A stretch of 64,000 nt of DNA, from positions 14,774-78,773 of the forward strand of contig CAWBKK010000006.1 in NCBI GenBank assembly GCA_963789355.1, given 5' to 3'. This document shows, piece by piece, positions 7,664-42,511 of the stretch. Source of the stretch: an uncultured Gaiellaceae bacterium. GTDB lineage: Bacteria; Actinomycetota; Thermoleophilia; Gaiellales; Gaiellaceae. A program made the position numbers and the translations under genes. The notes under the pieces are model-generated. The model did no database searches and was not told the DNA's origin. It worked only from the letters and a program-made list of their open reading frames with translations. Within the stretch, counting starts at the first letter, position 1, and every line of letters starts with the position of its first letter.

Positions 7664-7688
7664 GGGGTCAAGCTATCGTGCCGCCGCG

Positions 7689-8648
7689 ATGGCACGCCTC
7701 GAGATTCGTCCATTTTCCGACGAGTTCGTCCCGGCGGCGGCCGAGCTGCTGGCGGCCCGCCACCGGTCTCAGCGCGCAGCCGAGCCGTTGCTCTCCGCGC
7801 GCTACGAGGAGCCTGCAGCCGCCGCGGACCTCGTGTCCGAGCTGGCTGCGGCCGACGGCGCCAGCGGCGCGGTCGCGCTTCGCGGGGAGCGCGTCGTCGG
7901 CTACCTCGTCGGCGCCCCCAGGAGCGAGGAGCTGTGGGGCGCGAACGTGTGGGTCGATCACGCCGGACACGCAGTCGAGGAACCCGAGGACCTGCGTGAC
8001 CTCTACGCCGCGGCGGCCCATGTCTGGGTCGACGAGCACGGGCGGCCGCGTCACTACCCGCGCGTGCCCGCCACCGATGCGGCGCTGCTCGACGCCTGGT
8101 ACCGCCTCGGCTTCGGCCAGCAGCACGCATATGGCATCCGGGCCGTGCCGGACACGGAGTGGCCCGGCGACGTCCGGCTCGGGACCCCGGACGACGTCGA
8201 GGCGATCCTCGACCTCGACCCGCTTCTCACCGACCACCAGCAGGGATCGCCGGTGTTCCTGCGCGGGGGGGAGCGCCAGAGCCGCGCCGAGTTGCGCGCC
8301 GAGGTGCTCGAGGACCTGGCGAACGAGGGCGTCGCCGACCTGGTCGTCGAGCGCGACGGGCGCATCGTCGGCCTGTTCCACGTCGTCCCCGTCGAGCTCT
8401 CGAGCGCGCACGCCGGCGTCGCGCGGCCCGATGGCGCGGCGCTCCTGAGCTGGGCCGCAACCGATCCCGCCGTACGCGGCTCGGGTGCGGGGCTGGCGCT
8501 GACGCAGGCGGCCTTTGCGTGGGCGCGCGAGCGCGGACACGAGACGATGGTCGTCGACTGGCGCGTGACGAACCTGCTCGCGTCGCGCTTCTGGCCGCGG
8601 CGCGGCTTCCGAACGACGTTCCTCCGGCTGTACCGGCACATTCCGTAG
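7689..8648 (+). CDS. GNAT-family N-acetyltransferase (two GNAT-like halves)
   Basis: ATG at 7689 (MARLEIRPFSDEF). C-terminal half has GSGAGLALTQAAFAWARERGHETMVVDWRVTN...RRGF, typical of an acetyl-CoA binding fold. About 319 aa. Confidence 0.7.
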   Translation: MARLEIRPFSDEFVPAAAELLAARHRSQRAAEPLLSARYEEPAAAADLVSELAAADGASGAVALRGERVVGYLVGAPRSEELWGANVWVDHAGHAVEEPEDLRDLYAAAAHVWVDEHGRPRHYPRVPATDAALLDAWYRLGFGQQHAYGIRAVPDTEWPGDVRLGTPDDVEAILDLDPLLTDHQQGSPVFLRGGERQSRAELRAEVLEDLANEGVADLVVERDGRIVGLFHVVPVELSSAHAGVARPDGAALLSWAATDPAVRGSGAGLALTQAAFAWARERGHETMVVDWRVTNLLASRFWPRRGFRTTFLRLYRHIP

Positions 8649-10144
8649 TGACTCGGATTCCGATGCCCTCGGGCTCGCGAATCGCCGTCGTCAACACGCG
8701 CGACGGCGTCGTGCTCCGCCCACCGCGGCCCTCCGCCGGGGTCGTCGACGTCGCCGCGGCGGTGCGCGATGCGCTCCGCTTCCCGCTCTCGGGCTCGCCC
8801 CTCGAGGCGCTCGTCACCCGCGGTGGCGACGCCACGCTCGTCGTCCAGCCGCCGGAGCTGCCCCTGCCCGGCGTGCTCGACGACCCGCGGCGCCAGGCGC
8901 TGGCGACCGCGATCGACGAGCTCGAGCGGCTGGGCGTCCCGTCCAGGCGGCAGACGATCCTCGTCGCGGGCGGGCTCAATCGCCGAGCGGGGAACCGCGA
9001 GCTCGAGGCCCTGCTCGCGCCGAGCTTCGCCCGCCGCTTCCGGGGCCGCGTCGAGGTGCACGACGTCGAATCACCCGACCTCGTCCACGTCGGCGACGCA
9101 GGGCGGACGCCCCTGCGCGTTAACCCGCTCCTGCTGGAGACCGACCTTGTCCTCTGCGTCACAGCCGCCGAAACGGTGCTCCACGGCGGCCCCGGTGCGC
9201 TGATCGGCGCGTGCGGGTCCGAGACCCTGCGCGCCGCAACCGCCTACTCGCTGCTCGAGACCGCCGCCGCCCGCGGCTGGCAGCTCGGAGTCGCGCTCGA
9301 GCGGACGCTGACGAGCCAGGTGCCCGTGCTCGGCACGTCGCTGGTGCTGAACCCGCCACGGCTCTCTGGCCGCTTTCGCGACTACCCCTACGAGGACGAC
9401 GCGCTCGACCAGCTCGCCCGCTCGCCGCTGCGGCGGTTCTCGCTGCTGCCGTCCGGGATCCGCCGTCGCGTGCTCCAGGATCTCGGCCGCGAGCTGACCG
9501 CCGTCGCCGCCTTCGCGGGCCCACCCTCTGTCGCGCACGCCGAAGCGCTCTTGCGCGGGATCGCCCGGCGCTCGACGCCGCTCGAACAGCCGCTCGACGC
9601 GATCGTGATCGGGATGCCCTGGAAGCACCACCACGCTCCGCGCGAGCGCCTGAATCCGATCACGGTGGCGACCGTCGCGCTCGGCCTCGCCCTGCGGCTC
9701 TGGCGCGATGCGTTCCCGGTCAAGGACGACGGCACCGCGATCGTCCTCCACCGCCTCTCGCGCCACTTCGCGCACGGAACGCAGGATCCGTACCGCGCGC
9801 TCTTTCACTCGCTCCGCGACGGCCGCACCGCCGATGACCTGGCTGCGGGCGAGAGTGACGCCGCGGCAGACGAGCACGCACTCGAGGCCTACCGCACCGG
9901 CCGCGCCTGTCACCCGCTCCTCCCCTACGTCGACTGGGACAGCTGCCAGCCGGCGCTCGACCGGCTCGGCGCGGTCGTCGTCGCGGGCTCCCGGGACCAC
10001 CAGGCCGCGCGGACGCTCGGCTTCGTGCCGACGCACGGGATCTCCGGCGCGCTCGAGATGGCGCACGGCCGTGCCGGCGGCGAGGCGCGGATCGGCTACC
10101 TGGTCGGGCCGCCCTACTTCCCGCTCGAGGTCGGCGGAACGTAG
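8648..10144 (+). CDS. LarA-like / DUF2088-like protein (lactate-racemase N-terminal-domain family, divergent)
   Basis: GTG at 8648 overlaps the GNAT stop (TAGTG); alternative ATG at 8663. Pattern TILVAGGLNRRAGNRELEAL ... VEVHDVESPDLVHVGD..RTPLRVN...TDLVLCVTAAETVLHGGPGAL resembles the LarA N-domain layout as recalled from memory. Confidence 0.5.
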   Translation: MTRIPMPSGSRIAVVNTRDGVVLRPPRPSAGVVDVAAAVRDALRFPLSGSPLEALVTRGGDATLVVQPPELPLPGVLDDPRRQALATAIDELERLGVPSRRQTILVAGGLNRRAGNRELEALLAPSFARRFRGRVEVHDVESPDLVHVGDAGRTPLRVNPLLLETDLVLCVTAAETVLHGGPGALIGACGSETLRAATAYSLLETAAARGWQLGVALERTLTSQVPVLGTSLVLNPPRLSGRFRDYPYEDDALDQLARSPLRRFSLLPSGIRRRVLQDLGRELTAVAAFAGPPSVAHAEALLRGIARRSTPLEQPLDAIVIGMPWKHHHAPRERLNPITVATVALGLALRLWRDAFPVKDDGTAIVLHRLSRHFAHGTQDPYRALFHSLRDGRTADDLAAGESDAAADEHALEAYRTGRACHPLLPYVDWDSCQPALDRLGAVVVAGSRDHQAARTLGFVPTHGISGALEMAHGRAGGEARIGYLVGPPYFPLEVGGT

Positions 10145-10145
10145 A

Positions 10146-10168
10146 GCTTGTGTTGAACCAACACAAGC
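10146..10168. repeat. 23-nt palindrome copy 1 (GCTTGTGTTG-AAC-CAACACAAGC)
   Basis: 10-bp perfect inverted arms, read directly. Lies 2 nt after the LarA-like stop. Confidence 0.85.
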
Positions 10169-10205
10169 GCCGTTCAACCCACGGAGCCGTGCGACAGCCC
10201 CGCCA

Positions 10206-10228
10206 GCTTGTGTTGAATCAACACAAGC
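10206..10228. repeat. 23-nt palindrome copy 2 (GCTTGTGTTGA-A-TCAACACAAGC)
   Basis: 11-bp perfect inverted arms. Differs from copy 1 at one base. Start-to-start distance is exactly 60 bp. Confidence 0.85.
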
Positions 10229-10265
10229 CAGCGTCCGCGGGCCCGGCGCCCGGCCAGGGACGTCG

Positions 10266-11000
10266 CTAGTCGATGCCGAGGTAGGCCTTGCGGACGCGCT
10301 CGTTCTCGCGCAACTCCTTCGCCGGGCCTTCGAGCGCGATCACGCCCGTCTCCATCACGTAGCCACGGCTGGCCGCGTCGAGCGCCATCAGCGCGTTCTG
10401 CTCGACGAGCAGGATCGGCGTTCCCTGGGAGTTGATCTCCCGCACGATCTCGAAGATCCGCTCGACGAAGATCGGCGCCAGGCCCATCGACGGCTCGTCG
10501 AGCAGGAGCAGCTTCGGGCGAGCCATCAGCGCCCGACCCATGGCCACCATCTGCTGCTCGCCGCCCGACATCGTCCCGGCCTGCTGCTGCTTCCGCTCGG
10601 CGAGGCGCGGGAAGAGGTCGAAGACGCGATCCATGTCCTCGGGGAAGTTCGCCTTGTCGGTGCGCTGGAAAGCGCCCATCTCGAGGTTCTCGAGCACGCT
10701 CATCCGCGGGAAGAGCCGCCGGCCCTCGGGTGACTGCGCGATCCCCATCTTCACGATCGCGTGCGGCGGGGCGTTCGTGATGTCCCTGCCCTGGAAGGTG
10801 ATCCTGCCTTCGCGGGGATGGTTGACCCCGTTGATCGAGCGCAGCGTCGTCGACTTGCCTGCTCCGTTGGCGCCGATCAGGGTCACGACCTCACCCTCGT
10901 GCACCTTCAACGAGATTCCCTTGAGCGCGTGGATGGCGCCGTAATAGGTGTGGACGCCGTCGAGCTCGAGGACGATCCCGGCGCCGTTCGGCTCAGCCAT
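10266..11000 (-). CDS. livF: Branched-chain amino acid ABC transporter ATP-binding protein
   Basis: 244 aa. Walker A GANGAGKST, signature MSGGEQQMVAMGRAL, Walker B LLLLDEPS. Confidence 0.9.
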   Translation of the reverse strand: MAEPNGAGIVLELDGVHTYYGAIHALKGISLKVHEGEVVTLIGANGAGKSTTLRSINGVNHPREGRITFQGRDITNAPPHAIVKMGIAQSPEGRRLFPRMSVLENLEMGAFQRTDKANFPEDMDRVFDLFPRLAERKQQQAGTMSGGEQQMVAMGRALMARPKLLLLDEPSMGLAPIFVERIFEIVREINSQGTPILLVEQNALMALDAASRGYVMETGVIALEGPAKELRENERVRKAYLGID

Positions 11001-15649: not shown

Positions 15650-15733
15650 GCCGAAGTGGCGGAATTGGCAGACGCGCCGGACTCAAAATCCGGTTCCCCT
15701 CGGGGAGTGTGGGTTCGATTCCCACCTTCGGCA
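15650..15733 (+). tRNA. tRNA-Leu (anticodon CAA)
   Basis: 84 nt folded by hand. Acceptor GCCGAAG/CTTCGGC, anticodon stem CCGGA/TCCGG with loop CTCAAAA, long variable arm, T-arm GTGGG-TTCGATT-CCCAC, discriminator A. Confidence 0.9.
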
Positions 15734-29855: not shown

Positions 29856-30299
29856 GTGCCCCTGGGGCACGTTGGAGGTGAGGTCGTGGTCGAGAGGATC
29901 GAGTACCCCGTTCGCTCGGCAATCGGTGTTCTCGCGCCTCTGCTCGCTGCTGGGGCGCTCGCCACCTTTGTCGTCTGGGAGCGCTCGTTCGAAGCGGACT
30001 GGGCCGCGCCCGTCAGCCTCGTCGGCACGGGCGTCGCCTTCGTCACGTCCGCCTGGGCGATCCTCGTCGCCCCCTCGCGCGCGCTGCAGATAGTCGGTGC
30101 GGCGGCGCTGATCGTCTCCGTTCTCACCGCCGTGCTCTGGTGGTCCGCGATCAGCGGAATTCTGGAGACGACGCTGAGCCTCACGGCTGCGACGCCGGTT
30201 GTGCCGCGGGCTGCGGCGTCCCGCTCGAGTGGATCAGATTGCGCATCTCGCGCACCGCGACCGAGAGCCGCGCGAGATCGAGCGTGCCTCCGGTCCTGA
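29856..30299 (+). CDS. Hypothetical small membrane protein (uncertain)
   Basis: About three predicted TM segments. GGAGGTGAGG lies upstream of an internal GTG. The 3' 119 nt overlap the convergent gdh end, so the true extent is unclear. Confidence 0.3.
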   Translation: MPLGHVGGEVVVERIEYPVRSAIGVLAPLLAAGALATFVVWERSFEADWAAPVSLVGTGVAFVTSAWAILVAPSRALQIVGAAALIVSVLTAVLWWSAISGILETTLSLTAATPVVPRAAASRSSGSDCASRAPRPRAARDRACLRS

Positions 30300-33200
30300 T
30301 GTCGGCCAGCACCTGCAGCGAGCGCTCGACGGCGGCGGCGTTCTCGCGCAGCCAACGCTCCGCCCCCACGCCGGCGCGCAGAACCTCCGCGGTCAGCCCG
30401 GCCTGCTCGGAGTAGACGTCGTCGCGCAGCGCGGCGCGCGCCATCGCCTCCCAGCGCGTCTCCCTCGGCAGGTCGACGATCCGGTCGCGGAGCCAGTGCA
30501 GCTCGAGCCGCGCGCCGAGCGCGAAGTAGATCTCCGCCGCCGCCGCGACCTCGAGCTCGGATGCCGCGGCGATCTCGACGAGCTCGAAGGTCGGCACCAG
30601 CGCCTCGAGGTGCGAGACGCGCTGGGCGAGCCCGGCAGGGACGCCGGCGTCCGCGAGCTTCGCAGCCTTTGCGCGCGCGGCGTCGAGCTCGGAGTGTCCG
30701 AGCAGGGCTGGCAACGCCTCGGCGAGCGCCGCCGCGCCGGGGGCGTAGCGAGCGACCGTTGCCGCGATGTCGAGCGGCCGGCGCCGGTTGCGCAGCAGCC
30801 ACCTCGTCGCCCGCTCGAGCAGGATGCGCGCCCGGAGCAGCATCGCGATCTGCGTCTCAGCGGGCACCTGCCCGTCGAGCGACTCGATCTCACCCCACAG
30901 GTCGCGCAGGTCGAACGCCTCGCGCGCAGCCGTGTAGGCACGCGCGATGTCGTCGGCGCCGGCGCCCGTCTCGTCGGCGAGCCGGAAGGAGAAGGTGGTG
31001 CCGGCGCGGTTGACGAGGTCGTTGACGACGCGTGAGGCGATGATCTCCCGGCGCAGCGGGTGACGCTGCAGCTGCGCTCCGAACTCCTCGCGCAGCCGAG
31101 TCGGGAAGTAGCGCTCGAGCTCGCTCGACAGATACGGATCCTCCGGTAGGTCGGAGGCGAGCAGCTCCTGCGCGAGCGCGATCTTCGTGTGCGAGAGCAG
31201 CGTCGCGAACTCGGGCGCGGTCAGCCCGCCGCCCGCCGCCTCGCGCTCGTCGAAGCCTTCGACGGTCGGGAGGCATTCGAGCTCGCGGTTGAGCGTCCCC
31301 GCCTGCTCGAGGCTGCGGACGTACCGCTCGTGCACCTCGACCATCGACCCAGCCTGCGCCGCCGAGGTCGAGATCGCCTGCGTTTGCTCGTAGTTGTCGC
31401 GGAGGACGAGCGCGGCCACCTCGTCTCCCATCTCGGCCAGGATCGCGTTCCTCTGCTTCCCGGTCAGATCGCCGTCGCCGACGATGATGTCGAGCAGGAT
31501 CTTGATGTTGACCTCGTGGTCGGAGCAGTCGACGCCGGCCGAGTTGTCGATCGCATCCATGTAGATCTTCCCGCCGGCCCGCGCGAACGCAACGCGTGCA
31601 CGCTGGGTGAAGCCGAGGTTCCCGCCCTCGCCGACGACACGGCAGCGCAGCTCCTCCGCGTCCGCACGGACGGCGTCGTTCGCGCGGTCGCCGACCTCGG
31701 CGTGCCGTTCCTCCCGCGCCTTGACGTAGGTGCCGATCCCGCCGTTCCAGAGCAGGTCGACCGGAGCGGTGAGCAGCGCGTGGATCAGCTCGTTCGGCGT
31801 CAGCGCCTCGGCGTCGACGGCGAGCGCCGCCCGCACCTCGGTGGAGAGCGGGATCGACTTCGACGTGCGTGGGAAGACGCCACCGCCAGGCGAGATCAGC
31901 GCCTCGTCGTAGTCCGCCCACGACGAGCTCGGCAGCCCGAAGAGCCGCTCGCGCTCGGCGAAGCTCTTGGCCGCGTCCGGGTTCGGATCGAGGAAGACGT
32001 GCCGGTGGTCGAACGCGCCGAGCAGCCGGATGTGCCGGGAGAGGAGCACGCCGTTGCCGAAGACGTCACCGGACATGTCGCCGATCCCGGCGACGGTGAC
32101 GTCGGTCGTCTCGATGTCCGTTCCCAGCTCCCGGAAGTGCCGCTTGACCGATTCCCACGCCCCCCGCGCAGTGATCCCCATCTGCTTGTGGTCGTAGCCG
32201 GCCGACCCGCCCGAGGCGAAGGCGTCGCCGAGCCAATAGTCGTACTCGACCGAGACCGCGTTCGCGATGTCCGAGAAGGTTGCGGTGCCCTTGTCGGCGG
32301 CCACGACGAGGTAGGGATCGTCCTCGTCGTGGCGCACGACGTCGGCCGGAGGCACCACCCGGCCGGCGGCGATCGAGTCGGTCACGTCGAGCAGCCCGCG
32401 CATGAACGTCCGGTAGCACTCGACGACCTCCTCGAGTAGCGCGACGCGGTCGCCCGCTGCCGGGGGCCGCTTGACGACGAAGCCGCCCTTGGCGCCGACC
32501 GGGACGATGACCGCGTTCTTGACCGTCTGCGCCTTCATCAGCCCGAGCACCTCGGTCCGGAAGTCCTCGCGGCGGTCGGACCAGCGGATCCCGCCGCGGG
32601 CGACCTTGCCGCCGCGAAGATGAACGGCCTCGACGCGGGGCGAGTAGACGAAGACCTCGAACATCGGCCGCGGCTCGGGCAGGTCGGGGACGAGGTCCGG
32701 ATCGAGCTTCAGCGAGAGATAGGCCTTCGCCTGCCCGCCGGCGTCGGTCTGGAAGTAGTTCGTCCGCAACACCGCCCGCACGACGCGGAGGAACCCGCGC
32801 AGGATCCGGTCCTCATCGAGGCTCTCGACGGCGTCGATCGCGCTCTCGAGCTCACGCTCGAGCGTTCGCGCGTTCGACTCTGCACGATCGCTTGAGGCCG
32901 CGTCGTGGCCGCGAAGGCGGCCGCCTTCAGGGATCTTCGCAGGGTCGGAATCCGCTTCCGCGGATTCCGACCCTGCGCCAACAAGAACCGGGTCGAGGCG
33001 GAGCCGGAACAGCTCCACGATCCCCCGCGCGATCTCGGAGTGGGCGAAGAGCGCGTCCTCCATGTAGGTCTGGCTGAACGTGCTCCCGGCCTGGCGGAGG
33101 TACTTCGCGATCGCCCGCAGGATCGTGATCTCGCGCGCGGTCAGCCTGGCGGAGAGAACGAGCCGGTTGAAACCGTCGTTCTCGGCCTCCCCGCGCCAGG

Positions 33201-35175
33201 TGCGCGCGAACGCATCCTGGAACGTCTCGCGGACATCATCGGCGTGGAGCTCCGCGGCCCCGTCGTGGCGGAGCCCGAAGTCGTAGATCCAGACCGAGGG
33301 GCCGCCGGGAGGCTTGACCTCGTACGGCCGCTCGTCGCTGACCCGGACTCCCATGTTCTCGAGCAGCGGCAGGACGTCGGAGAGCAGGATCGGCCTGCCC
33401 GAGCGGACGAGCTTGAAGGCGAGGTGGTCCAGCGTCGACTCGAGCGGGACGTACAGGCTCATCCCGAGGTCGCCGTCCGTGTCGAGCCGCTCGATCCGCT
33501 CGATGTCGTGCACGGCCTGGCGGGCGGTGAAGTCCTCGCGGTAGGCACCGGGGAACGCCTCGCCGAAGCGCTCGAAGAGCGGGCCCGCACGCGCCTCGCC
33601 GAGCTGCTCCGAGAGTGCGTCGCGAAGATCGTCCGTCCACGCCCGCGTCGCCGCGGCGAGCCGGGCCTCGATCTCGGCGATGTCGAAATCGGGTGCGGCG
33701 CCCTGCTCGGTGTAGACGACGACGTGGAGCCGCGCGAGCACCGAGTCGGACACTCGCGTCGTGTAGTCGATGCTCGTGCCGGAGAGCGCCCGCTGGAGGA
33801 TCTCTTGGATGCGCTGCCTGTTCCGCGTGTCGAAGCGCTCGCGGGGCAGATAGACGAGGCACGAGAGGAAACGGCCGAAGGCGTCCCGGCGGACGAAGAG
33901 CCGCACGCGTCGGCGCTCGCCCAGATGGAGGATCCCGAGCGCCGTCTCGACCAGCTCGTCCTCCGAGATCTGGAAGAGCTCGTCGCGCGGGTACGTCTCG
34001 AGGATCTCCACGAGCGCCTTGTGGTCGTGGCTGCCCAGCGGCAGCCCCGAGCGCTCGACGACGCGCTGGGCCTTGCGGCGCAGGACGGGGATCTCCGACG
34101 GGCTGGCGCTGTACGCGGTGTGGGTGTAGAGGCCGAGGAAGCGCCACTCGCCCACGACCTCGCCGTCGGCGTCGAAGCGCTTGACGCCGACGTAGTCCAG
34201 GTACGCGGGCCGGTGCACCGTCGCCCGCGAGTTCGCCTTCGTCAAGGTGAGCAGGCTCTTCTCGCGCGCGAGCCGACGCACTTCCGGCGGGAGCTGCGCG
34301 AAGCTGACGGAGATCGTCCGTTCGTCTCCGGCCCGGAGGATTCCCAGCCCCGAGCCGGGCGCCGCCCGCAGAACCTCCTCCCCGTCCTCCGTGAGGATGT
34401 CGTACTCCCGGTAGCCGAGGAACGTGAAGTGGTCGTCGTGCATCCACGCCAGCAGGTCGCGAGCCTCTGCGAGCTCGTCCGGCTCGACCGCGGGCGGTGA
34501 CTCGGCGAGCGCGGCGAGCACGCCGTGAACGCGCTCGCGCATCGTCGGCCAGTCTTCGACGGCGGCGCGCACGTCGCCGAGCACACGGGCGAGGCCGGCC
34601 CGCAGCTGCTCCAGCTCCTCGTCACCCGCCTGACGGTCGATCTCCACGTGGATCAGCGACTCCGGCAACCCGTCCTCGGCACCGACGTCGAGCAGCCGTC
34701 CCGCCTCGTCGCGGCGGATGCGCATGATCGGCCGGATCACGAGATGGATCGCGCTCCCGTTCCGCGTCACCTCCATCGAGACCGAGTCGACGAGGAAGGG
34801 CATGTCGTCGACGACCGTCTCGACGACGGTGTGCGGCGACTCCCACCCGTGCTCTTCGACACTCGGCGTGTAGACGTGCACCTTCGACTCACCCGGTTGC
34901 CGCACGCGCGCGAGGTTCCAGTGGGCAACCGCGGCTCCGTAGAGGTCGAGGTCGCTCCGGTCGTTCAGGTCGTCGGGGGCGACGTGCGCGTAGTACGCGC
35001 GCACGAACCGCTCGACGGCGCCGGCCTCGGAGGGCTCGACGCGCTCTTGGACGCGCGCGACCGTCGCCTCGAGCAGCGCCGCCTTCCTCTGATCCGGGCT
35101 CGTTGCCAGTCGCAGACCTCGTCTCGCGTTGCAACTCCGAGTATGGACTAGCGGCGGCGGGCACCAAGGTTTCAC
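30181..35175 (-). CDS. gdh: Large NAD-specific glutamate dehydrogenase (about 180 kDa class)
   Basis: About 1660 aa. Blocks FEVFVYSPRVEAVHLRGGKVARGGIRWSDRREDFRTEVLGLMKAQTVKNAVIVPVGAKGGF and GIGDMSGDVFGNG. Start is uncertain: GTG 35175 is preferred, because the listed TTG 35262 would overlap the divergent lipoprotein start. Confidence 0.9.
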   Translation of the reverse strand: MKPWCPPPLVHTRSCNARRGLRLATSPDQRKAALLEATVARVQERVEPSEAGAVERFVRAYYAHVAPDDLNDRSDLDLYGAAVAHWNLARVRQPGESKVHVYTPSVEEHGWESPHTVVETVVDDMPFLVDSVSMEVTRNGSAIHLVIRPIMRIRRDEAGRLLDVGAEDGLPESLIHVEIDRQAGDEELEQLRAGLARVLGDVRAAVEDWPTMRERVHGVLAALAESPPAVEPDELAEARDLLAWMHDDHFTFLGYREYDILTEDGEEVLRAAPGSGLGILRAGDERTISVSFAQLPPEVRRLAREKSLLTLTKANSRATVHRPAYLDYVGVKRFDADGEVVGEWRFLGLYTHTAYSASPSEIPVLRRKAQRVVERSGLPLGSHDHKALVEILETYPRDELFQISEDELVETALGILHLGERRRVRLFVRRDAFGRFLSCLVYLPRERFDTRNRQRIQEILQRALSGTSIDYTTRVSDSVLARLHVVVYTEQGAAPDFDIAEIEARLAAATRAWTDDLRDALSEQLGEARAGPLFERFGEAFPGAYREDFTARQAVHDIERIERLDTDGDLGMSLYVPLESTLDHLAFKLVRSGRPILLSDVLPLLENMGVRVSDERPYEVKPPGGPSVWIYDFGLRHDGAAELHADDVRETFQDAFARTWRGEAENDGFNRLVLSARLTAREITILRAIAKYLRQAGSTFSQTYMEDALFAHSEIARGIVELFRLRLDPVLVGAGSESAEADSDPAKIPEGGRLRGHDAASSDRAESNARTLERELESAIDAVESLDEDRILRGFLRVVRAVLRTNYFQTDAGGQAKAYLSLKLDPDLVPDLPEPRPMFEVFVYSPRVEAVHLRGGKVARGGIRWSDRREDFRTEVLGLMKAQTVKNAVIVPVGAKGGFVVKRPPAAGDRVALLEEVVECYRTFMRGLLDVTDSIAAGRVVPPADVVRHDEDDPYLVVAADKGTATFSDIANAVSVEYDYWLGDAFASGGSAGYDHKQMGITARGAWESVKRHFRELGTDIETTDVTVAGIGDMSGDVFGNGVLLSRHIRLLGAFDHRHVFLDPNPDAAKSFAERERLFGLPSSSWADYDEALISPGGGVFPRTSKSIPLSTEVRAALAVDAEALTPNELIHALLTAPVDLLWNGGIGTYVKAREERHAEVGDRANDAVRADAEELRCRVVGEGGNLGFTQRARVAFARAGGKIYMDAIDNSAGVDCSDHEVNIKILLDIIVGDGDLTGKQRNAILAEMGDEVAALVLRDNYEQTQAISTSAAQAGSMVEVHERYVRSLEQAGTLNRELECLPTVEGFDEREAAGGGLTAPEFATLLSHTKIALAQELLASDLPEDPYLSSELERYFPTRLREEFGAQLQRHPLRREIIASRVVNDLVNRAGTTFSFRLADETGAGADDIARAYTAAREAFDLRDLWGEIESLDGQVPAETQIAMLLRARILLERATRWLLRNRRRPLDIAATVARYAPGAAALAEALPALLGHSELDAARAKAAKLADAGVPAGLAQRVSHLEALVPTFELVEIAAASELEVAAAAEIYFALGARLELHWLRDRIVDLPRETRWEAMARAALRDDVYSEQAGLTAEVLRAGVGAERWLRENAAAVERSLQVLADIRTGGTLDLARLSVAVREMRNLIHSSGTPQPAAQPASQP

Positions 35176-35255
35176 CGGACTCTCATCTGTCCGCCGTACA
35201 ACTCCGGCGGAGACGGGCGACCGAGCCCGCAAATCGACCTTTGGAGGAGCCTCAC

Positions 35256-36038
35256 GTGGCAATCGGCAGGAACCGGATCGCCGCCGCCCTCGGCGTGCTC
35301 GGCGCGGCGTTCGCCTTCGCGGCCTGCGGCGGCAGCGACAGTGCCGGCGAGACGAACGCCGACGCCGATGCGGCGACGAGCACGCTTCCGCAGGGGAGCG
35401 AGCCTGTCGAGCTCGACCCGAAGGACTTCTCGATCGAGATCGACAACCCCTACTGGCCGATGAAGCCAGGGAACACGTGGGTCTTCCGCGCGACCGACCC
35501 CAGAGGCGGTCTGGAGAGGATCGTCGTCGAGGTCACCGACGAGACGAAGATGATCGCCAACGGGATCGAGGCGCGGGTGATCCGCGACACGGTCAGCGAG
35601 GACGGCGTGCCCGTCGAGATCACCGACGACTGGTACGCGCAGGACGCGAGCGGGAACATCTGGTACCTGGGCGAGTACGTCACGAACTACGAGGACGGGA
35701 AGGTCGCCGACCACAAAGGCTCCTTCGAGGCCGGCGTCGACGGCGCCCTCGCCGGCGTCGCGATGCCCGCGAACCCCGTGCCGGGGCTGACCTATCGCCA
35801 GGAGTACTTCAAAGGCGAGGCAGAGGACAAGGCTGGAGTGATCACGGTCGGCCAGGAGCACGTTCAGGTCCCGTTCGGCTATTTCAAGGACGACGTCCTG
35901 ATGACGCGCGACCTGGTCCCGACCGAGCCTCAGGTGCAAGAGCTGAAGTTCTACGCTCCCGGTGTCGGGCCGGTGCTCAGCATCCACACCGACCTGGACG
36001 GCGGCAGAGCCGAGCTCGTCAGCTTCACGTCCGGCTAG
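35256..36038 (+). CDS. Hypothetical lipoprotein
   Basis: GTG 35256 with GGAGGAG RBS. Lipobox AFAACGG. No recognised domain. Confidence 0.6.
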   Translation: MAIGRNRIAAALGVLGAAFAFAACGGSDSAGETNADADAATSTLPQGSEPVELDPKDFSIEIDNPYWPMKPGNTWVFRATDPRGGLERIVVEVTDETKMIANGIEARVIRDTVSEDGVPVEITDDWYAQDASGNIWYLGEYVTNYEDGKVADHKGSFEAGVDGALAGVAMPANPVPGLTYRQEYFKGEAEDKAGVITVGQEHVQVPFGYFKDDVLMTRDLVPTEPQVQELKFYAPGVGPVLSIHTDLDGGRAELVSFTSG

Positions 36039-37976: not shown

Positions 37977-38353
37977 AGCAGCTCGGCCTCGCGAGCTTCC
38001 ATCTCGTCGCCGTGGTCGTAGCCGAGCAGGTGGAGGAGCCCGTGCACGAGCGGCCGGCGCCACTCCTCGCCGACGACCTGGGGGCAGAGGACGAGGTCGC
38101 CGAGTGCGCGCGGGAGACCCGCCGGCAGCTCCTCGCGGCCGTCGAGCGGGAACGAGAGCACGTCCGTGGGCTCGTCGATCCCGAGGTGCTCCTGCTTCAG
38201 CGCCCGGCTCTCCTCCGGGGGCACGAACGCAAGCCCGAGCTCGCCCTCCTCGATCCCCTCGGCGGCGAGGACGCGCTGCGCCAGCGCGACCGCGGCGGCC
38301 TCGTCCACCTCCGCCCCGCTCCTGTTCTCGACCTCGACCGCGACCACCGGCAC
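37973..38353 (-). CDS. ybeY: rRNA maturation endoribonuclease YbeY
   Basis: About 126 aa. HGLLHLLGYDH zinc motif. GTG overlaps the phoH stop (TAGTG). Confidence 0.9.
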   Translation of the reverse strand: MPVVAVEVENRSGAEVDEAAAVALAQRVLAAEGIEEGELGLAFVPPEESRALKQEHLGIDEPTDVLSFPLDGREELPAGLPRALGDLVLCPQVVGEEWRRPLVHGLLHLLGYDHGDEMEAREAELL

Positions 38354-39313
38354 TACCGCTTGCGGGCGGTGCCCGTCTCTTCGGCGTGGAGCTTGTACGC
38401 CTCGACGATCCGCTGCACGAGCTTGTGCCGGACGACGTCCTCGTGCGAGAACTCGACGAAGCCGATCCCGTCGATCGAGCTGAGGATGTCGCGCACCTGG
38501 ATCAGGCCGGACGCCTGGTCTCGCGGGAGGTCGATCTGCGTCACGTCGCCGGTGACGACGACCTTCGAGCCGAAGCCGAGCCGCGTCAGGAACATCTGCA
38601 TCTGCTCGGGCGAGGTGTTCTGCGCCTCGTCGAGGATGATGAAGGAGTCGTTGAGGGTGCGGCCGCGCATGAAGGCGAGCGGCGCGACCTCGATCGTGCC
38701 GCGCTCCATGTAGGCGGCGAGGCGATCGGGATCCATCATGTCGTAGAGGGCGTCGAAGAGCGGCCGCATGTACGGGTCGACCTTCGCGAGCATGTCGCCG
38801 GGCAGGAAGCCGAGCCGCTCGCCGGCCTCGATCGCCGGGTCGGGTGAGGATGATCCGGCCGACCTGCTTCTCGGTCAGGGCCGCGACGGCGAGCGCGATC
38901 GCGAGGTACGTCTTGCCGGTGCCGGCGGGACCGATGCCGAAGGTGACCGTGCTGTCGCGGATCGAGTCGACATAGCGCTTCTGCGTCACCGTCTTGGGCG
39001 CGATCTTCTTGCCCCGGTGGCGCCAGACGACGTCCTCGAAGACCTCGCGGAGGTCCTCGGCCTGGTCGAGCGCCGCCACCACGGCGCCGACCGTCTCCGG
39101 GCCGATCTCGTGGCCGCCCTCGACCAGCTCGACGAGCTCGTCGACGACCGCGCGCGCAGCGGCGACGCTGTCGTCCTCGCCCTCGATCGTCAGCTCGTTC
39201 CCGCGCAGGCGGAGCGTGCAGCTGAGCCGCGCGCGGAGTGCGTCGAGGACGCCGTCGCCGACGCCTGCGAGCTCGGCGGCGACCTCGTTCGGGACGGAGA
39301 GCGTTTCCTGCAC
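38353..39313 (-). pseudogene. phoH: PhoH-like ATPase, single frame disruption near 38835-38837
   Basis: The N-part (GIGPAGTGKTYLAIALAVAAL...IILTRP) and C-part ([30 protein letters not shown]...ILDEAQNT) lie in different frames. One extra G/C in ACCCGACCCGGCGATCGAG explains the break. Confidence 0.85.
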
Positions 39314-39345
39314 GCGGCTCAGTGTAGGAGCAGAATCCACCCAGG

Positions 39346-42300
39346 TGCGACGGCGAAAGCGGAGTCCCATCCAGGACGGTGATCGAGCTCGGGCAGGAGC
39401 TCGCCTCGACGTACTCGTGGGTCGACGCCGACGAGCTCCCGGTCGACGACGAGTGTTCGCCCGGCTCGTCGAGCTGCTCACCGATCCCGAGAGCATCGAC
39501 GACGAGACGTTCGCGGAGGTCGCGCTGAGGGGCGCGAAGTTCCTTCGTGCCGGGGCCCTGGCCGCAATCGCCGCCGGCCGCACGCCGCCGCCCGGCTGGA
39601 TCGAGACCGTGCGAAGAATCGGTTCGAGCGCAGCGAGTGGGGCGAGCGGCAGCTGCTCCTGCGTGCGCTCGCGGGGAGCGACGGGAAGGTGATTCCGGCC
39701 GTGCTCGCGGCGGCCGAGGAGGACTGGTCCGGCAGCCCGCTCGCGCGCGAGGTCTCCCGCTTCCTCGAGGCGCGTGTCGCAGCCGGGGAGGTCGTGACGG
39801 CGGCCGAGCTGGACGAGCTCGACGCCGGCCTGCAGCCGCTCGTCCGCGAGCTGTTCGACGGGACCGACGTCGCGACGAGGGCCGCGCTTCAGCCCGCACT
39901 CGAGCAGTGGCAGACGACGACGATCGACATCGACTTCTTCCGCGAGCTCGGGCGCGTCGTCGTCCCCGGTCGAGCGGCCCCCGGCGACGCTCGTCGGCGG
40001 CCGGGTCGCGGCGGTCGACGCGCTCGTCGGCGCGCTCTCGGCGTCGCAGGCCGCGGTCGGTCCTGCTCGTCGGCGAGCCGGGAGTCGGCAAGACGACGCT
40101 GATCGTCGAGGCGCTCCGGCGACTCGGCGAGCGATCGGTTCGCGTTCCAGGCGGGCGCGGCCGACGTGAACGCGGGCCAAGCGTTCGTCGGGATGCTCGA
40201 GGCCAGGGTGCAGGAGATCGTCGACCGCGTCTCGCGGCGACCGATCGTCTGGGTGTTCCCGAGCTTCGAGGAGGCGCTCTGGTCCGGGCAGCACATGCAG
40301 AGCCCGCGGGGCGTGCTCGACGCGCTCCTCCCTCACGTCGAGGCCGGCGACGCCGTCGTGGTCGGCGAGATCGACCCGCGGGCCTACGAGCTCGTGCTCC
40401 AGCACCGTCCCCGGGTGGCGAGGCTGTTCGAGGTGGTCCGGCTCGCGCCGCCGGCAGGACGCGAACGCGATCGAGATCGCGCGGGACTGGGCGACGCAGA
40501 ACGACCTGGACGTCGACGACGAAACGCTTGCGGAGGCTCTCGATCTCGCTACGCACTATCTGCCCGCGGCGGCAGCTCCGGGGAACGTCCTGCGCGTGCT
40601 CGAGCTCGTTCGCGACCGCATCGCCCGCGGTGCCGCGACCGACGATCGACCCGGAGACGGTGATCGCCACGCTCAGCGACGCGACCGGGCTGCCGCTCCA
40701 CGTGCTCGACCCGAGGACGCCGCTCAGCCTCGAACGGGTGCGCGCGTACTTCGGCGCCCGCGTGCTCGGGCAGCCGGAGGCGGTCGAGTGCCTCGTCGAC
40801 CGAATCGCACTCGTGAAGGCCGGGTCTCACCGATCCGACCCGCCCGCTCGGCGTCTTCCTCTTCGTCGGCCCGACCGGAACCGGCAAGACGGAGATCGCG
40901 AAGGCCTTCAGCGCCTTCGTCTTCGGCTCGGAAGACCGGCTCGTCCGGCTCGACATGAGCGAGTACCAGACGCCGGAGAGCCTCGACCGCCTCCTCGGCG
41001 ACGCGACCACGCCCCAGCAGCAGGCGGCGCCGTTGATCGCCCAGGTCCGCAAGCAGCCGTTCTCCGTCCTGCTGCTCGACGAGTTCGAGAAGGCGCACCC
41101 GCAGATCTGGGACATCTTCCTCCAGGTCTTCGACGACGGGCGGCTGACCGACCGCGAGCGGGCGCACCGTCGACTTGCGTCACTGCGTGATCATCCTCAC
41201 CTCCAACCTCGGGTCCGCGATCCCGTCGCGGCCCCGGCGTCGGGCTTCGTCGGCAGTTCGGGCGAGTTCGACGCCGCGTCCGTGCTCAAGTCCGTCGAGC
41301 GCTCGTTCCGGCCGGAGTTCCTGAACCGCCTCGACCGTGTCGTCGTCTTCCGCCCGCTCGGCCGCGACGTCATGCGCGGCCTGCTCGAGAAGGAGCTCAA
41401 CGACGTGCTCGAGCGCCGCGGCTTCCGGATGCAGCCCTGGGCGGTCGAGTGGGACGAGGCCGCGGTCGACTTCCTGATCGAGCAGGGCTTCAGCGCCGAG
41501 CTCGGCGCGCGCCCGCTCAAGCGTGCGGTCGAGCGGCACCTGCTGACGCGGATCGCGACCGCGATCGTCGAGCGGCAGTTCCCCGAGGGGGATCAGTTCC
41601 TGTTCATCACCGCCCGCGACGGGACCGGCCTCGACGTCGTCTTCGTCGATCCGGACGCGGGCGAGCCGGAACCCGTCCCGGCGGCCAGGCCCACCTCCCG
41701 GACCGACCTGACCCTCGGGCGGCTCGCGCTCGAACCGGAGGGAACCGAGGCCGAGGCCGCCTTTCTCCGGAGCGCGCTCACACCGCTCGTCGAGCGCGTC
41801 CGCTCCTGGGACGAGCCGAAGCAGGACGCGCTGGCGGCGGCGCGCAACCCGGCCTTCTGGCAGTCGGAGGAGCGGCACCAGGTGCTGGGCCTGATCGAGT
41901 ACCTCGACCGGCTTGGTGCCGCGACGGCCACTGCCGAGCGGCTCGCTGCCCGCCTCTCCTCCGGGCGCGAGGCGCACTCACGTGAGCTGCTCCAGCTGCT
42001 GGCGACCCGCCTCCACGTGCTCGCCGCTGCTCTCGCCGGCCTCGACGCGCGCGAGGCGAGCGACGCGACGATCACGGTCCGGGCGGGCAAGGCAGAGGAC
42101 ACGGACGCCTGCGGGAGGTTCGTGGAGGAGCTCGCGACCATGTACATCGGCTGGGCGGACGGCCGGGGGATGCGCGTCCGCAGGAACGCCGACGACGGCG
42201 CGGTCGTGCTCGAGGTCGCGGGGCTCGGCGCCTACACGCTGCTGAAGCCGGAGGTCGGGATGCACGTGCTCGAGCTGCCGCACGCGGACGATCGCTCCTT

Positions 42301-42511
42301 CGACCGCGTCACCGTGGTCGTCGACGTCGAGCCGACCGGGCACGGCGGGAACGGGTCGCCGCCGGCCGAGCGGCGGGAACCGGCGATCGTGAGGCGGTAC
42401 CGGCACGAGCCGTCTCCCCTCGTTCGCGACGCCTCCGGGCTGCGCACCGGCAGGATCGACCGCGTCCTGGCGGGCGACTTCGACCTGCTCGCCGACGCGC
42501 CGCCCGACTAG
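39346..42511 (+). pseudogene. Clp/Hsp100-like double AAA+ ATPase fused to a GGQ-less RF2-like domain; about ten frame changes between 39450 and 41240
   Basis: Stitched from ORFs 38994-39692, 39689-40102, 39547-41190, 40166-40663, 40596-40958 and 40955-42511. Motifs: [77 protein letters not shown]. The C-terminal 250 aa are release-factor-like. Start is GTG 39346 or 39379. Confidence 0.7.

Follow-up and report, generated by a model that had tools for sequence, protein, structure and literature searches.

The window, meaning the whole stretch of 64,000 nucleotides that was analysed, comes from an uncultured Gaiellaceae bacterium. It carries a plus-strand gene for a Clp-type double AAA+ ATPase whose C-terminal tail resembles release factor 2 (RF2) without its GGQ domain. 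The earlier note on this DNA had placed the gene antisense within a conserved translation-gene block, and Pfam assignments of the neighbours agree: the gene is flanked by minus-strand genes, yqeY-HIT-mtaB-prmA-dnaJ...lepA to one side of it and phoH-ybeY-dgkA-cdd-era to the other. Genes for ribosome biogenesis and quality control (ybeY, era, prmA and lepA) surround the gene in this lineage, and the same placement is found in a relative whose tail is just 39% identical. Beyond the Gaiellales-like lineage, neighbours differ and are unrelated, so that the ribosome-gene neighbourhood may be coincidental; neither clpP nor any other conserved partner gene adjoins the family gene at any locus examined. 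The plus-strand open reading frame fragments had been joined into one protein of about 1040 aa starting at 39346. They do form one protein: once 12 insertions relative to the related locus L001 are taken out, a frame of 1050 codons opens, but it runs from a GTG at 39345 to the stop codon at 42509-42511 and encodes 1050 aa. The features are as follows.

39345..42511, plus strand: whole gene, 1050-aa Clp-type double AAA+ ATPase with GGQ-less RF2-like tail
38840..41244: cluster of 13 frame-shifting insertions, 12 in the gene and one in phoH (38840)
39377, 39455, 39610, 39967, 40048, 40131: first six insertions in the gene, relative to L001
40459, 40644, 40821, 41158, 41228, 41244: last six insertions in the gene, relative to L001
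39345..40016, plus strand: N-terminal all-alpha domain, ARM/HEAT-type solenoid-like (aa 1-~222)
40017..40644, plus strand: D1 AAA+ module (aa ~223-430), no M-domain
40072-40098, plus strand: D1 Walker A (P-loop GEPGVGKTT)
40172-40195, plus strand: D1 aromatic pore loop AGQAFVG
40247-40273, plus strand: D1 degenerate Walker B VWVFPSFEE
40645..41338, plus strand: D2 large AAA+ module (aa 431-660)
40868-40894, plus strand: D2 Walker A
40991-41035, plus strand: D2 pore-loop region without GYVG
41069-41095, plus strand: D2 Walker B
41193-41213, plus strand: D2 sensor-1
within 41236-41254, plus strand: D2 VGF tripeptide
41306-41335, plus strand: D2 Arg finger
41339..41614, plus strand: D2-small domain (aa 661-752)
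41504-41533, plus strand: sensor-2 GARPLKR, in D2-small
41615..41743, plus strand: flexible Ala/Pro/Gly/Glu-rich tether from the ATPase to the RF-like module (aa 753-795)
41744..42061, plus strand: RF2-like domain 1, helical bundle (aa 796-901)
41846-41872, plus strand: conserved FW motif in domain 1
42062..42334, plus strand: RF2-like domain 2 (aa 902-992)
42134-42172, plus strand: MY..WA..RGM, in domain 2
42248-42283, plus strand: GMHVLE and non-conserved SPF-equivalent loop, in domain 2
42335..42382, plus strand: 16-aa Gly/Pro linker TGHGGNGSPPAERREP replacing RF2 domain 3 (GGQ) (aa 993-1008)
42383..42511, plus strand: RF2-like domain 4 (AIVRRYRHEPSPLVRDASGLRTGRIDRVLAGDFDLL...) and stop codon (aa 1009-1050)

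As assembled, the gene carries 12 uncompensated insertions of 1-2 nt each, called from the gaps in a blastn alignment of the window with L001 (89% identical); over the other ~15.6 kb of flank that align, the same analysis finds no uncompensated indel. The damage probably stems from local errors of assembly in a gene that is itself functional. Assembly error is favoured over decay because all 12 events in the gene are insertions, the segments between them contain no in-frame stops, and the protein identity of these segments to L001 (82-100%) is no worse than that of the flanks. It is doubtful that the window copy and the copy in a second metagenome-assembled genome (MAG), L005, represent a real pseudogene inactivated in those strains. 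Decay would account for the crowding of frameshifts in the gene and their absence from the aligned flanks, as well as for L005, where the gene has 13 indels and the flanks have few; however, 11 of these 13 are again insertions, one insertion of the window lies outside the gene, in phoH, and intact copies are present in five closely related MAGs and one Illumina MAG. A search of related genomes for intact orthologues, as had been proposed, found them at eight loci (L001, L002, L003, L004, L007, L008, L010 and L016), with lengths of 1044-1131 aa (1044 aa at L008:7745-10879), and one of them shares the gene neighbourhood of the window.

The gene product is a stand-alone member of an uncharacterised, widespread Clp/Hsp100 subfamily. 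The family comprises 390 clusters at E ≤ 1e-30, with proteins of 1049-1292 aa in which the tail module is always C-terminal. Motifs of the RF2-like domains 4 and 2 are invariant across Actinomycetota, Planctomycetota, Acidobacteriota, Gemmatimonadota and Pseudomonadota at 34-45% identity; the counts of motif conservation given below refer to 75 full-length members. The earlier note knew of no described family that joins a double AAA+ Clp ATPase to an RF2-like module, and the searches are in line with this: public databases give generic names only ("AAA family ATPase", "ClpC" and "PCRF domain-containing"), full-text literature searches turned up no paper describing a family of Clp ATPases with a GGQ-less RF2, and a 2019 survey of release-factor relatives does not mention it (PMC6514570).

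Like ClpA and ClpC, the family has two AAA+ modules and a D2-small domain and lacks a full M-domain of the ClpB type, and residues 231-762 match ClpA residues 203-746 collinearly. Unlike them, it has an ARM/HEAT-like N-domain in place of Clp_N, has lost the D1 Walker B and the D2 GYVG, and adds the RF2-like module at the C-terminus and, in most members, a transmembrane helix at the N-terminus. The N-domain, which has no match in Pfam, is a novel alpha-solenoid as modelled: the AlphaFold2 model of residues 1-232 of the orthologous protein P0217 consists of helices throughout (pLDDT 83.8), and Foldseek against the PDB gives only armadillo/HEAT-repeat matches, all weak (E ≥ 0.1). A Clp_N double repeat is ruled out by this model and by the lack of a Clp_N match. 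The transmembrane anchor is found in most of the ~390 clusters and is missing from the Gaiellaceae branch, including the window protein. In D1, the Walker A that had been read from the sequence is present and its GxxGxGK[TS] P-loop is retained in the 75 members, while the Walker B that had appeared degenerate is lost family-wide, its Asp position being Pro in 61/75 with no DE pair among the full-length members. The D1 pore loop begins with Tyr in 52 or Phe in 14 members, followed by Ile, Val or Leu and then by Gly in 74. D1 is thus predicted to be a ring that binds ATP, is unable to hydrolyse it and keeps an aromatic pore loop.

Of the profiles that had been put forward as a check, the two that match the second ring both score above their cut-offs, AAA_2 with E=2e-41 in the intact orthologue L008, and ClpB_D2-small with E=5e-15 in the intact orthologue and E=1.4e-14 in the window open reading frame. 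D2 had been called canonical Clp type, and this stands for its catalytic motifs, namely Walker A and B, sensor-1, the Arg finger and sensor-2, which are retained in 73-75 of the 75 members (Walker B DE in 73-74, sensor-2 GARPL[KR]R in all 75). It does not stand for the pore loop, where GYVG is absent and the segment is variable and rich in Ser, Gly, Ala, Asp and Glu, with an aromatic residue in only 10/75, nor for the region after sensor-1, where a ClpA-type [LIV]GF loop is found. As judged by these motifs, the D2 ring has its full catalytic equipment and a ClpA/ClpC-type [LIV]-G-F loop, but no GYVG tyrosine. This pore-loop tyrosine powers unfolding in ClpA and ClpB, and we know of no D2 ring without a pore-loop aromatic that serves as a processive ClpP-feeding motor. 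Because the active D2 ring has lost it, a strong "unfoldase" is doubtful. In ClpA, substrate engagement begins at the D1 pore loops, and those of D2 are most important when stable domains are unfolded (PMC8666677).

In the [LIV]-G-F tripeptide the Gly is kept in 73/75 and the Phe in 74/75 members, between variable flanks. A tripeptide of the type [LIV]-G-[FL] sets the ClpP-binding ClpA, ClpC, ClpE and ClpX apart from ClpB/Hsp104. The family IGF aligns with the ClpA IGL, the ClpP-docking loop, in 5ofo_C, a ClpB-ClpA chimera that binds ClpP; this hydrophobic-Gly-Phe/Leu likeness points to a protease partner, which the first reading of the sequence had not considered. The best overall match of D2 and D2-small is ClpB/Hsp104 (1qvr_A, E=2e-74), and the D2 of ClpB/ClpC is ~50% similar to that of the family. 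ClpB differs in having a coiled-coil M-domain (residues 404-512) that has no counterpart in the family and in lacking the ClpP-type loop, whereas the family lacks the D2 pore tyrosine and its D1 is predicted to be unable to hydrolyse ATP. With no M-domain, and with 127 bits against TIGR03346 where the cut-off is 1232, a ClpB disaggregase is ruled out.

Behind D2-small follows the tether (family median 32 aa, range 27-83); here, in its first 30 residues, the tail model has a pLDDT of 57-68. The C-terminal ~250 aa, which had been recognised as following RF2 domains 1, 2 and 4, are RF-like well beyond chance. First, Pfam PCRF, for which the curated cut-off is 24 bits, reaches 32 bits, with 26-32 bits in three orthologues, and is above the cut-off in 24/24 diverse family members. 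Second, the family profile matches RF2 in the PDB at E=1.9e-15 and covers RF2 residues 8-225 and 319-356. Profile positions 125-~228 align with RF2 residues 8-~110 (domain 1), and positions 351-388 align with residues 319-356 of domain 4 (IRSY..P..VKDHRT....V..VMDGDID). Third, the structure prediction that had been suggested gave, for this region, a confident AlphaFold2 model (pLDDT 87.7, pTM 0.81) whose best 50 Foldseek matches in the PDB are all class-I release factors, RF2 or RF1; the domain 2/4 core superposes at 3.2-3.5 Å over ~105 columns (6gwt_v, 5u4j_v). The domain 1 bundle (helices 45-63, 66-77, 87-115 and 123-144 of the model) has a pLDDT >90. The tail thus shares with RF2 (PrfB) the domain 1 bundle, the domain 2/4 beta-sandwich and the IRSY..VKD.RT..VLDG.LD motif. 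In domain 2, the invariant residues of the family are M, Y, W, G, H, E and R; domain 4, with the motif VRRYR..PSPLVRD..RTGR.DRVL.GDFD, is the most conserved stretch of all, its R, Y, D, G, F and D being invariant in 75/75.

What is missing from the tail is equally well delimited. The replacement of the GGQ domain by a short linker is borne out by the profile, which skips RF2 residues 226-318. The segment found instead measures ~15-38 aa, compared with 93 aa in RF2, contains no GGQ tripeptide in 68 members, and has a pLDDT of ~60 in the model; Pfam RF-1/GGQ has no match at E ≤ 1, and none of the 24 diverse members matches it at E ≤ 0.01. The positions that contact the stop codon in RF2 are unconserved, namely the alpha5 tip (GGTE; GxxE), the His/Thr of RHTS and the SPF loop, the last of which had been noted as not conserved in the window protein and proves variable across the family. 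Whereas RF2 stands alone, the RF-like module of the family is fused behind an ATPase. A true RF2/PrfB is ruled out, since RF-1/GGQ is absent, SPF is unconserved and the score against TIGR00020 (prfB) is 21-25 bits where the cut-off is 370.

The interpretation that we tentatively favour, with a probability of roughly 0.45, is that a tail that neither reads codons nor has catalytic activity docks in the A site and thereby brings a ClpP-coupled AAA+ machine to ribosomes. The protein would form a ClpA-like hexamer with D2 as the sole motor, which would dock on ClpP through its [LIV]GF loops, and the tail would act as a docking module and not as an enzyme. What it keeps of RF2 is the part placed in the 30S decoding centre (domains 2/4) and the part opposite the L11 stalk (domain 1), and nothing appears to remain of what reads stop codons or extends to the peptidyl-transferase centre. 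Since the family does not conserve the elements with which RF2 reads codons, binding to an A site would have to be independent of the codon; the most plausible target would be the vacant A site of a stalled or idle ribosome, where a tail without GGQ could not release peptides. Next, the ATPase on its tether would use its N-domain and D1 pore loops to take hold of an unstructured polypeptide associated with the ribosome, be it a nascent chain or a bound factor, and would pass this polypeptide on to ClpP. The loss of the D2 tyrosine would suit a substrate that has to be engaged but need not be unfolded by force. The earlier proposal, a ribosome A-site-targeted unfoldase or rescue factor, is plausible, with the qualifications set by the missing D2 tyrosine, the [LIV]GF loop and the unconserved codon-reading elements.

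The sequence pattern of the rings, with the D1 Walker B lost, the D2 motifs intact and GYVG absent, suggests a division of labour that supports A-site docking of a ClpP-coupled machine, and the invariance of its motifs across five phyla suggests that the tail is under selection, which supports it too; so do the [LIV]GF loop, for the ClpP coupling, and, in this lineage, the placement among genes for ribosome biogenesis and quality control. Several points speak against it. The tail would hang from D2-small on the ClpP-proximal side, while substrate would enter at D1, on the far side, a geometry that could be reconciled only by the flexible tether; with no D2 pore-loop aromatic, the protein may not translocate polypeptides at all; clpP adjoins the gene at none of the loci examined; and as the stop-codon-contact elements are unconserved, the ligand of the module could have changed. 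The first of these also bears on a less probable alternative, in which the RF2-derived tail has lost ribosome binding and been exapted to serve a specialised Clp ATPase in protein-protein interaction, regulation or oligomerisation. Such a tail might bind a substrate or adaptor or gate the ATPase, with substrates unrelated to translation, and its ClpP-proximal position, awkward for handing over a ribosome-bound substrate, would pose no problem. The codon-reading and catalytic elements of RF2 are all gone or unconserved, conservation is highest at residues that elaborate the domain 4 motif in a family-specific way, and translation-related neighbours are not conserved beyond one lineage. However, domain 1 and the domain 2/4 superdomain, both ribosome-facing, are kept with RF2-like topology, which is hard to square with a generic binding surface, and of the domains only domain 3, which extends to the peptidyl-transferase centre, has been removed, and precisely. 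To our knowledge, RF domains 1/2/4 have no non-ribosomal ligand, which also counts against exaptation.

A bacterial counterpart of Dom34/Pelota with ABCE1 that remodels ribosomes without proteolysis is unlikely. Here the dead RF module would enter the A site when a ribosome is stalled or hibernating, and ATP hydrolysis by D2 would split the subunits or evict a factor or tRNA without threading into ClpP. This would suit an active ring without a gripping pore loop, which argues against processive translocation, and the proximity of ybeY, era and lepA in this lineage, but it leaves the invariant [LIV]-G-F at the ClpP-docking position without explanation, and the canonical aromatic pore loop of D1 suggests that a polypeptide is engaged. 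We know of no Clp/Hsp100 protein that splits ribosomes, a further point against remodelling. In its favour, a GGQ-less, codon-blind RF relative resembles Dom34, a catalytically inactive protein with an ATPase partner (PMC6514570). A conflict or defence effector, in which an invader would be detected by the N-domain and ATPase, and translation stopped by an RF-like decoy that blocks A sites, is highly improbable in spite of the patchy distribution across phyla, the varying neighbourhoods outside Gaiellales and PADLOC matches to DolB and PDC-M37B, because these matches span only the generic AAA_2 core (residues ~460-690), the neighbourhoods are not defence islands at the loci examined, no plasmid copy was found, and the gene keeps its position in a housekeeping block in Gaiellales-like genomes even at 39% tail identity.

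The proposed docking on ribosomes has parallels in known systems. ArfB/ICT1 and PrfH are truncated class I release factor derivatives that are recruited to stalled ribosomes (PMC6514570); they keep GGQ and lose codon-reading or other domains, the opposite of the family, in which domains 1/2/4 are kept and GGQ is lost. Dom34 and Vms1 are release-factor relatives that do not read stop codons and have an ATPase partner on stalled ribosomes, the partner of Vms1, Cdc48, being a double-ring AAA+ protein (PMC6514570). Dom34/Pelota-ABCE1 and Vms1-Cdc48 have their logic in common with the family, not their ancestry: the eRF1 fold there is unrelated to the bacterial RF fold; moreover, their partners are separate proteins whereas the family has a single polypeptide, and Vms1, unlike the family tail, is catalytically active. 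Like the majority of the family, FtsH has an N-terminal transmembrane anchor that places a cytoplasmic AAA+ ring at the membrane, but this is a single ring fused to its own metalloprotease, with no RF module. In most lineages of the family, the N-terminal helix would similarly hold the machine at the membrane, whereas the form in the Gaiellaceae branch of the window, which unlike FtsH has no anchor, would be soluble.

The ATPase gene at 39345-42511 is a real gene, and its 1050-aa product clearly derives from both the Clp/Hsp100 and the RF2 lineages. The protein consists of an N-terminal region, a body of two AAA+ rings (D1 and D2) in which some catalytic and pore motifs are kept and others are lost, a flexible tether, and a C-terminal tail of ~250 aa that is homologous to RF2 and from which domain 3, the GGQ-bearing peptidyl-tRNA hydrolysis domain, has been precisely lost. 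Its surroundings in the window, with flanking genes assigned by Pfam, are as follows.

39345-42511 (+): the ATPase gene, sole plus-strand gene of the block
One flank, all (-): comEC, holA, lepA, dnaJ, prmA, mtaB, HIT and yqeY
Other flank, all (-): phoH, ybeY, dgkA/PAP2, cdd and era
30184-35262 (-): NAD-specific glutamate dehydrogenase of the Bac_GDH type (1693 aa, with ACT and helical-motif domains), just past era
15650-15733 (+): tRNA gene, the sole Rfam match in the 64-kb window at the gathering threshold

A relative with only 39% tail identity has the same placement, and the phoH/yqeY position is kept in the Gaiellales-like lineage alone. Among the neighbourhoods of eight other loci carrying homologues (L010, L011, L013, L015, L016, L017, L019, and L020), no recurrent partner gene was found, and clpP, smpB, and ribosomal genes were absent; the neighbours there are unrelated and include WD40/PD40, AraC-GyrI, lipase, M48 peptidase, oxidoreductase, kinase, and subtilase genes. 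Therefore, the protein is regarded as a self-contained unit, and the translation-gene neighbourhood is lineage-specific and weak as functional evidence.

The region of the gene has ~72% G+C with long ORFs in every frame, and in a three-frame translation of the window the conserved protein shifts about nine times among the plus-strand frames. Nucleotide alignment with the closest public locus, L001 (89% identical), which belongs to a Microflora Danica MAG of an uncultured Gaiellaceae bacterium, traces these jumps to insertions in the window: the gene holds 12 uncompensated insertions of 1-2 nt and phoH, next to it, a further one, all of them within 38840-41244, and none was found in the remaining ~15.6 kb of the window aligned to L001. 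Deletion of the 12 insertions restores an unbroken frame of 1050 codons from a GTG at 39345, preceded by AGGAG, to a stop at 42509-42511, and the segments between the shifts are stop-free with 82-100% protein identity to L001. Intact frames are found in five related nanopore MAGs and in Illumina-based MAGs, one of which (L008) carries an intact 1044-aa orthologue with the same divergent phoH neighbour. The breaks are most likely local consensus errors; a pseudogene in the window is the less likely reading. Programmed frameshifting of the prfB type was rejected, because the 12 events are scattered, lie at other positions in a second broken copy (L005), and are matched by intact frames in close relatives.

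An exhaustive HMM search with a tail profile against 1.84 billion representative proteins, from which the full-length members were taken, yielded 390 clusters (50% identity) at E<=1e-30 and 749 at E<=1e-10. Among the best 150 matches, 74 are full length (1049-1292 aa, mode ~1110-1135), and the module is C-terminal in all. The family is spread over soil and groundwater bacteria from at least five phyla; its named carriers, all uncultured, are Gaiellaceae, other Actinomycetes, Thermoleophilia, Planctomycetota, Pyrinomonadaceae, Gemmatimonadaceae, Xanthobacteraceae/Pseudomonadota, and Desulfobacterales. In databases the members are called "AAA family ATPase", "ATP-dependent Clp protease ATP-binding subunit ClpC" (automatically), "PCRF domain-containing protein", or "hypothetical protein". 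Word-indexed protein searches retrieved only fragments of up to 755 aa and no member from a cultured organism, and none of 72,556 plasmids gave a tblastn match to the tail.

The intact L008 orthologue matches AAA_2 (E=2e-41) and ClpB_D2-small (E=5e-15); its D2 half aligns with Thermus ClpB at E=2e-74, and the entire D1-D2 body is collinear with ClpA. Motifs were read from the residue-level alignment and counted in an alignment of 74 full-length family representatives and the L008 protein (n=75). In D1, the P-loop GxxGxGK[TS] is retained across the family and the pore loop is a canonical aromatic-hydrophobic-Gly (Tyr in 52/75, Phe in 14/75, Gly in 74/75), but the Walker B Asp position is occupied by Pro in 61/75 and no acidic pair follows, so that D1 should bind ATP rather than hydrolyse it. 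A counterpart of the ClpB M-domain (residues 404-512) is missing from the family. The earlier note had called D2 canonical Clp type. This holds for its catalytic motifs, as Walker A, Walker B (DE), the sensor-1 Asn, the Arg finger, and sensor-2 GARPL[KR]R are conserved in 73-75/75, but two departures had been missed. First, in all 75 a variable segment takes the place of the GYVG pore-1 loop; it is rich in Ser, Gly, Ala, Asp, and Glu and contains an aromatic residue, at no fixed position, in only 10. Second, an invariant [LIV]-Gly-Phe with variable flanking residues stands immediately past sensor-1. Tripeptides of the [LIV]-G-[FL] type separate the ClpP-docking Clp ATPases from ClpB/Hsp104. 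The best PDB match of an 87-residue D2 stretch is 5ofo_C, an engineered ClpB with the ClpP-binding loop of ClpA, in which the family IGF falls opposite the ClpA IGL.

The description of the tail in the earlier note, as RF2 domains 1, 2, and 4 without the GGQ domain, proved right in every particular tested. Over its C-terminal 253 aa, the window ORF matches Pfam PCRF with 32 bits (cut-off 24) and NCBIfam prfB with E=1e-5, and gives no match to the RF-1/GGQ domain even at E<=1; PCRF is likewise above its cut-off in L008, in a Planctomycetota orthologue, and in 24/24 diverse members, none of which has RF-1 (0/24). A profile of 20 tails matches RF2 chains in the PDB at E=1.9e-15 and RF1 at 1e-9, and aligns to RF2 residues 8-225 (domains 1 and 2) and then, separately, to 319-356 (domain 4); the 93 residues of domain 3 stand opposite just ~20 positions of the profile. 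Measured between fixed motifs, the replacement of domain 3 is ~15 aa long in Gaiellaceae and ~29 aa in the family median, and GGQ occurs in none. In an AlphaFold2 model of window 41615-42508 (pLDDT 87.7, pTM 0.81), a helical bundle comes before a part with the beta-alpha-beta topology of RF domain 2/4, and confidence is low at the tether and the domain-3 replacement. All of its top 50 Foldseek matches in the PDB are RF2 or RF1 (E down to 2e-10), and the domain 2/4 core superposes on RF at 3.2-3.5 A across ~105 columns. A global TM-score of only 0.3-0.5 reflects the absence of domain 3 and a different interdomain angle. Nearly invariant in the family are the motifs MY..W...R.M, G.GAY..L..E.G.H..E, and VRRYR..PSPLVRD..RTGR.DRVL.GDFD, and the variable positions are those aligned to the stop-codon readers of RF2, namely GGTE at the alpha5 tip, SPF, and the His/Thr of RHTS. 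The tether between the ATPase and the tail is flexible, rich in Ala, Pro, Gly, and Glu, and 32 aa long in the median. In most members the ~29-aa replacement contains a helix-like A-L-x-Q-A-x-x-A-L (for example, 'EALRKQASDALEG' in the family protein P0101 and 'HKTALEQAQAAF' in P0105), which may be a remnant of RF helix alpha7, the last in domain 3; in Gaiellaceae this site is taken up by a Gly/Pro linker of only ~15 aa.

The first ~222 residues match no Pfam family, Clp_N included. The AlphaFold2 model of the orthologous N-terminal segment is all helical (pLDDT 83.8), and its fold has no significant match in the PDB, with only a weak resemblance to armadillo/HEAT-type solenoids (E>=0.1); taken together, these point to a predicted helical-repeat domain that is family-specific and distinct from Clp_N. 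In 58-64 of the 74 full-length representatives the protein starts with a strongly hydrophobic 19-mer followed by Arg/Lys (P0083, P0099, P0101, P0128, P0198, and others, and L015 at ~7590), the signature of a predicted N-terminal membrane anchor with a cytoplasmic body. The typical family member would therefore be membrane-anchored. The Gaiellaceae branch, including the window, is without this anchor, which was either lost or never present there.

The protein fits none of the parent families. It cannot be placed in ClpB, which has the M-domain and GYVG, nor among canonical ClpA/ClpC, as it has no Clp_N, a dead D1, and no D2 tyrosine, nor in RF2, as it is without the GGQ domain and SPF and scores 21-25 bits against a cut-off of 370 bits. 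ArfB and PrfH, rescue derivatives of release factors, keep GGQ and shed other domains, whereas this family did the reverse. A 2019 survey of proteins related to release factors tracks the hydrolase domain, which the family lacks, and makes no mention of a Clp fusion (PMC6514570). In the full-text literature, the coverage of which is incomplete, no publication on a Clp ATPase with a GGQ-less RF2 module was found. The protein is a Clp/Hsp100 ATPase that carries a putative targeting domain without precedent and whose two rings share out their work in an unusual way.

Stalled bacterial ribosomes are rescued by tmRNA, by GGQ-bearing RF derivatives (ArfA with RF2, ArfB, and PrfH), and by splitting factors (MutS2, HflX, and HrpA), and the nascent chain in these pathways reaches a Clp protease via a tag such as ssrA. 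At a probability of about three in ten, the protein is an undescribed bacterial ribosome-quality-control machine: a hexameric ClpP-coupled AAA+ ATPase, membrane-anchored in most lineages, in which a codon-blind RF2 module plugs stalled A sites and which extracts and degrades the nascent chain or a trapped factor, or splits the ribosome. In the favoured mechanism, the D1 ring of the hexamer would be static and ATP-bound, with tyrosines able to hold a polypeptide, D2 would be the sole motor, and the [LIV]GF loops would dock it on ClpP; the tail would occupy the A site independently of the codon and without peptidyl-tRNA hydrolysis. In ClpA, the D1 pore loops start substrate engagement and those of D2 contribute most to unfolding stable domains (PMC8666677). 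A machine with such loops in D1 only would be suited to clients that are unstructured, for example nascent chains. From the membrane anchor comes a hint that ribosomes jammed at the translocon may be under surveillance.

Several points weaken this model, and three rival readings compete with it. All codon-contacting residues have drifted, and the tail hangs off the ClpP-proximal face, distant from the D1 entry pore; as a first rival, the tail would be an exapted binding domain for a non-ribosomal partner. We also know of no ClpP-feeding motor without a D2 aromatic; a second rival takes the protein for a non-proteolytic, Dom34-like splitter. The third, a defence effector, is considered unlikely; PADLOC on two full-length orthologues matched the generic AAA_2 core alone, and the protein was therefore not classed as a defence gene.

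The nearest functional analogies of the proposed quality-control machine come from archaeo-eukaryotic systems, in which Dom34 is paired with ABCE1 and Vms1 with Cdc48, an AAA+ ATPase of two rings, and the machine, if real, would be a one-polypeptide bacterial counterpart of either pair. There is a substantial chance that by its function the protein opens a new class of ribosome quality control in bacteria. A catalysis-less RF body wired directly to a Clp motor would differ from the known solutions in that an ATPase/protease is physically recruited to the A site. To our knowledge it would then be the first example both of a class I release factor pared down to a domain for targeting alone and of a Clp/Hsp100 protein that carries its own ribosome adaptor, as well as a natural experiment in splitting work between rings, where an inactive D1 grips and an active D2 does not. 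The hypothesis is directly testable with recombinant protein, and the family is sizeable and carries only generic annotation.

Insertions cluster in the same gene in two independent nanopore MAGs, at 38840-41244 of the window and 7721-10178 of L005. Each cluster has 13 events of 1-2 nt, nearly all insertions and mostly outside homopolymers; the aligned flanks contain none in the window and about five in L005. Both clusters set in at or just upstream of the 5′ end of the gene and stop 0.7-1.3 kb short of its 3′ end. A possible cause, as a guess, is faulty consensus at a locus that varies between strains. The phoH gene of the window (38356-39320, minus strand) is also split, with the C-terminal part of PhoH in an ORF at 38353-38793 and the N-terminal part in a different frame, because of one inserted base at 38840 that belongs to the same cluster. 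In two of four MAG pairs (L007-L001 and L002-L004), nucleotide identity is 78% and 85% in the gene (~7745-10897, locus coordinates) versus 88-92% in the flanks, an indication that the locus may evolve faster or exchange alleles. In L015, from a Planctomycetota groundwater MAG, the gene is in two ORFs (6986-8941 and 9050-10951), between which ~35 residues of the D1-small/D2 junction are absent; its close relative L010 has a single intact frame of ~1114 aa, and the split is therefore probably another assembly frameshift.
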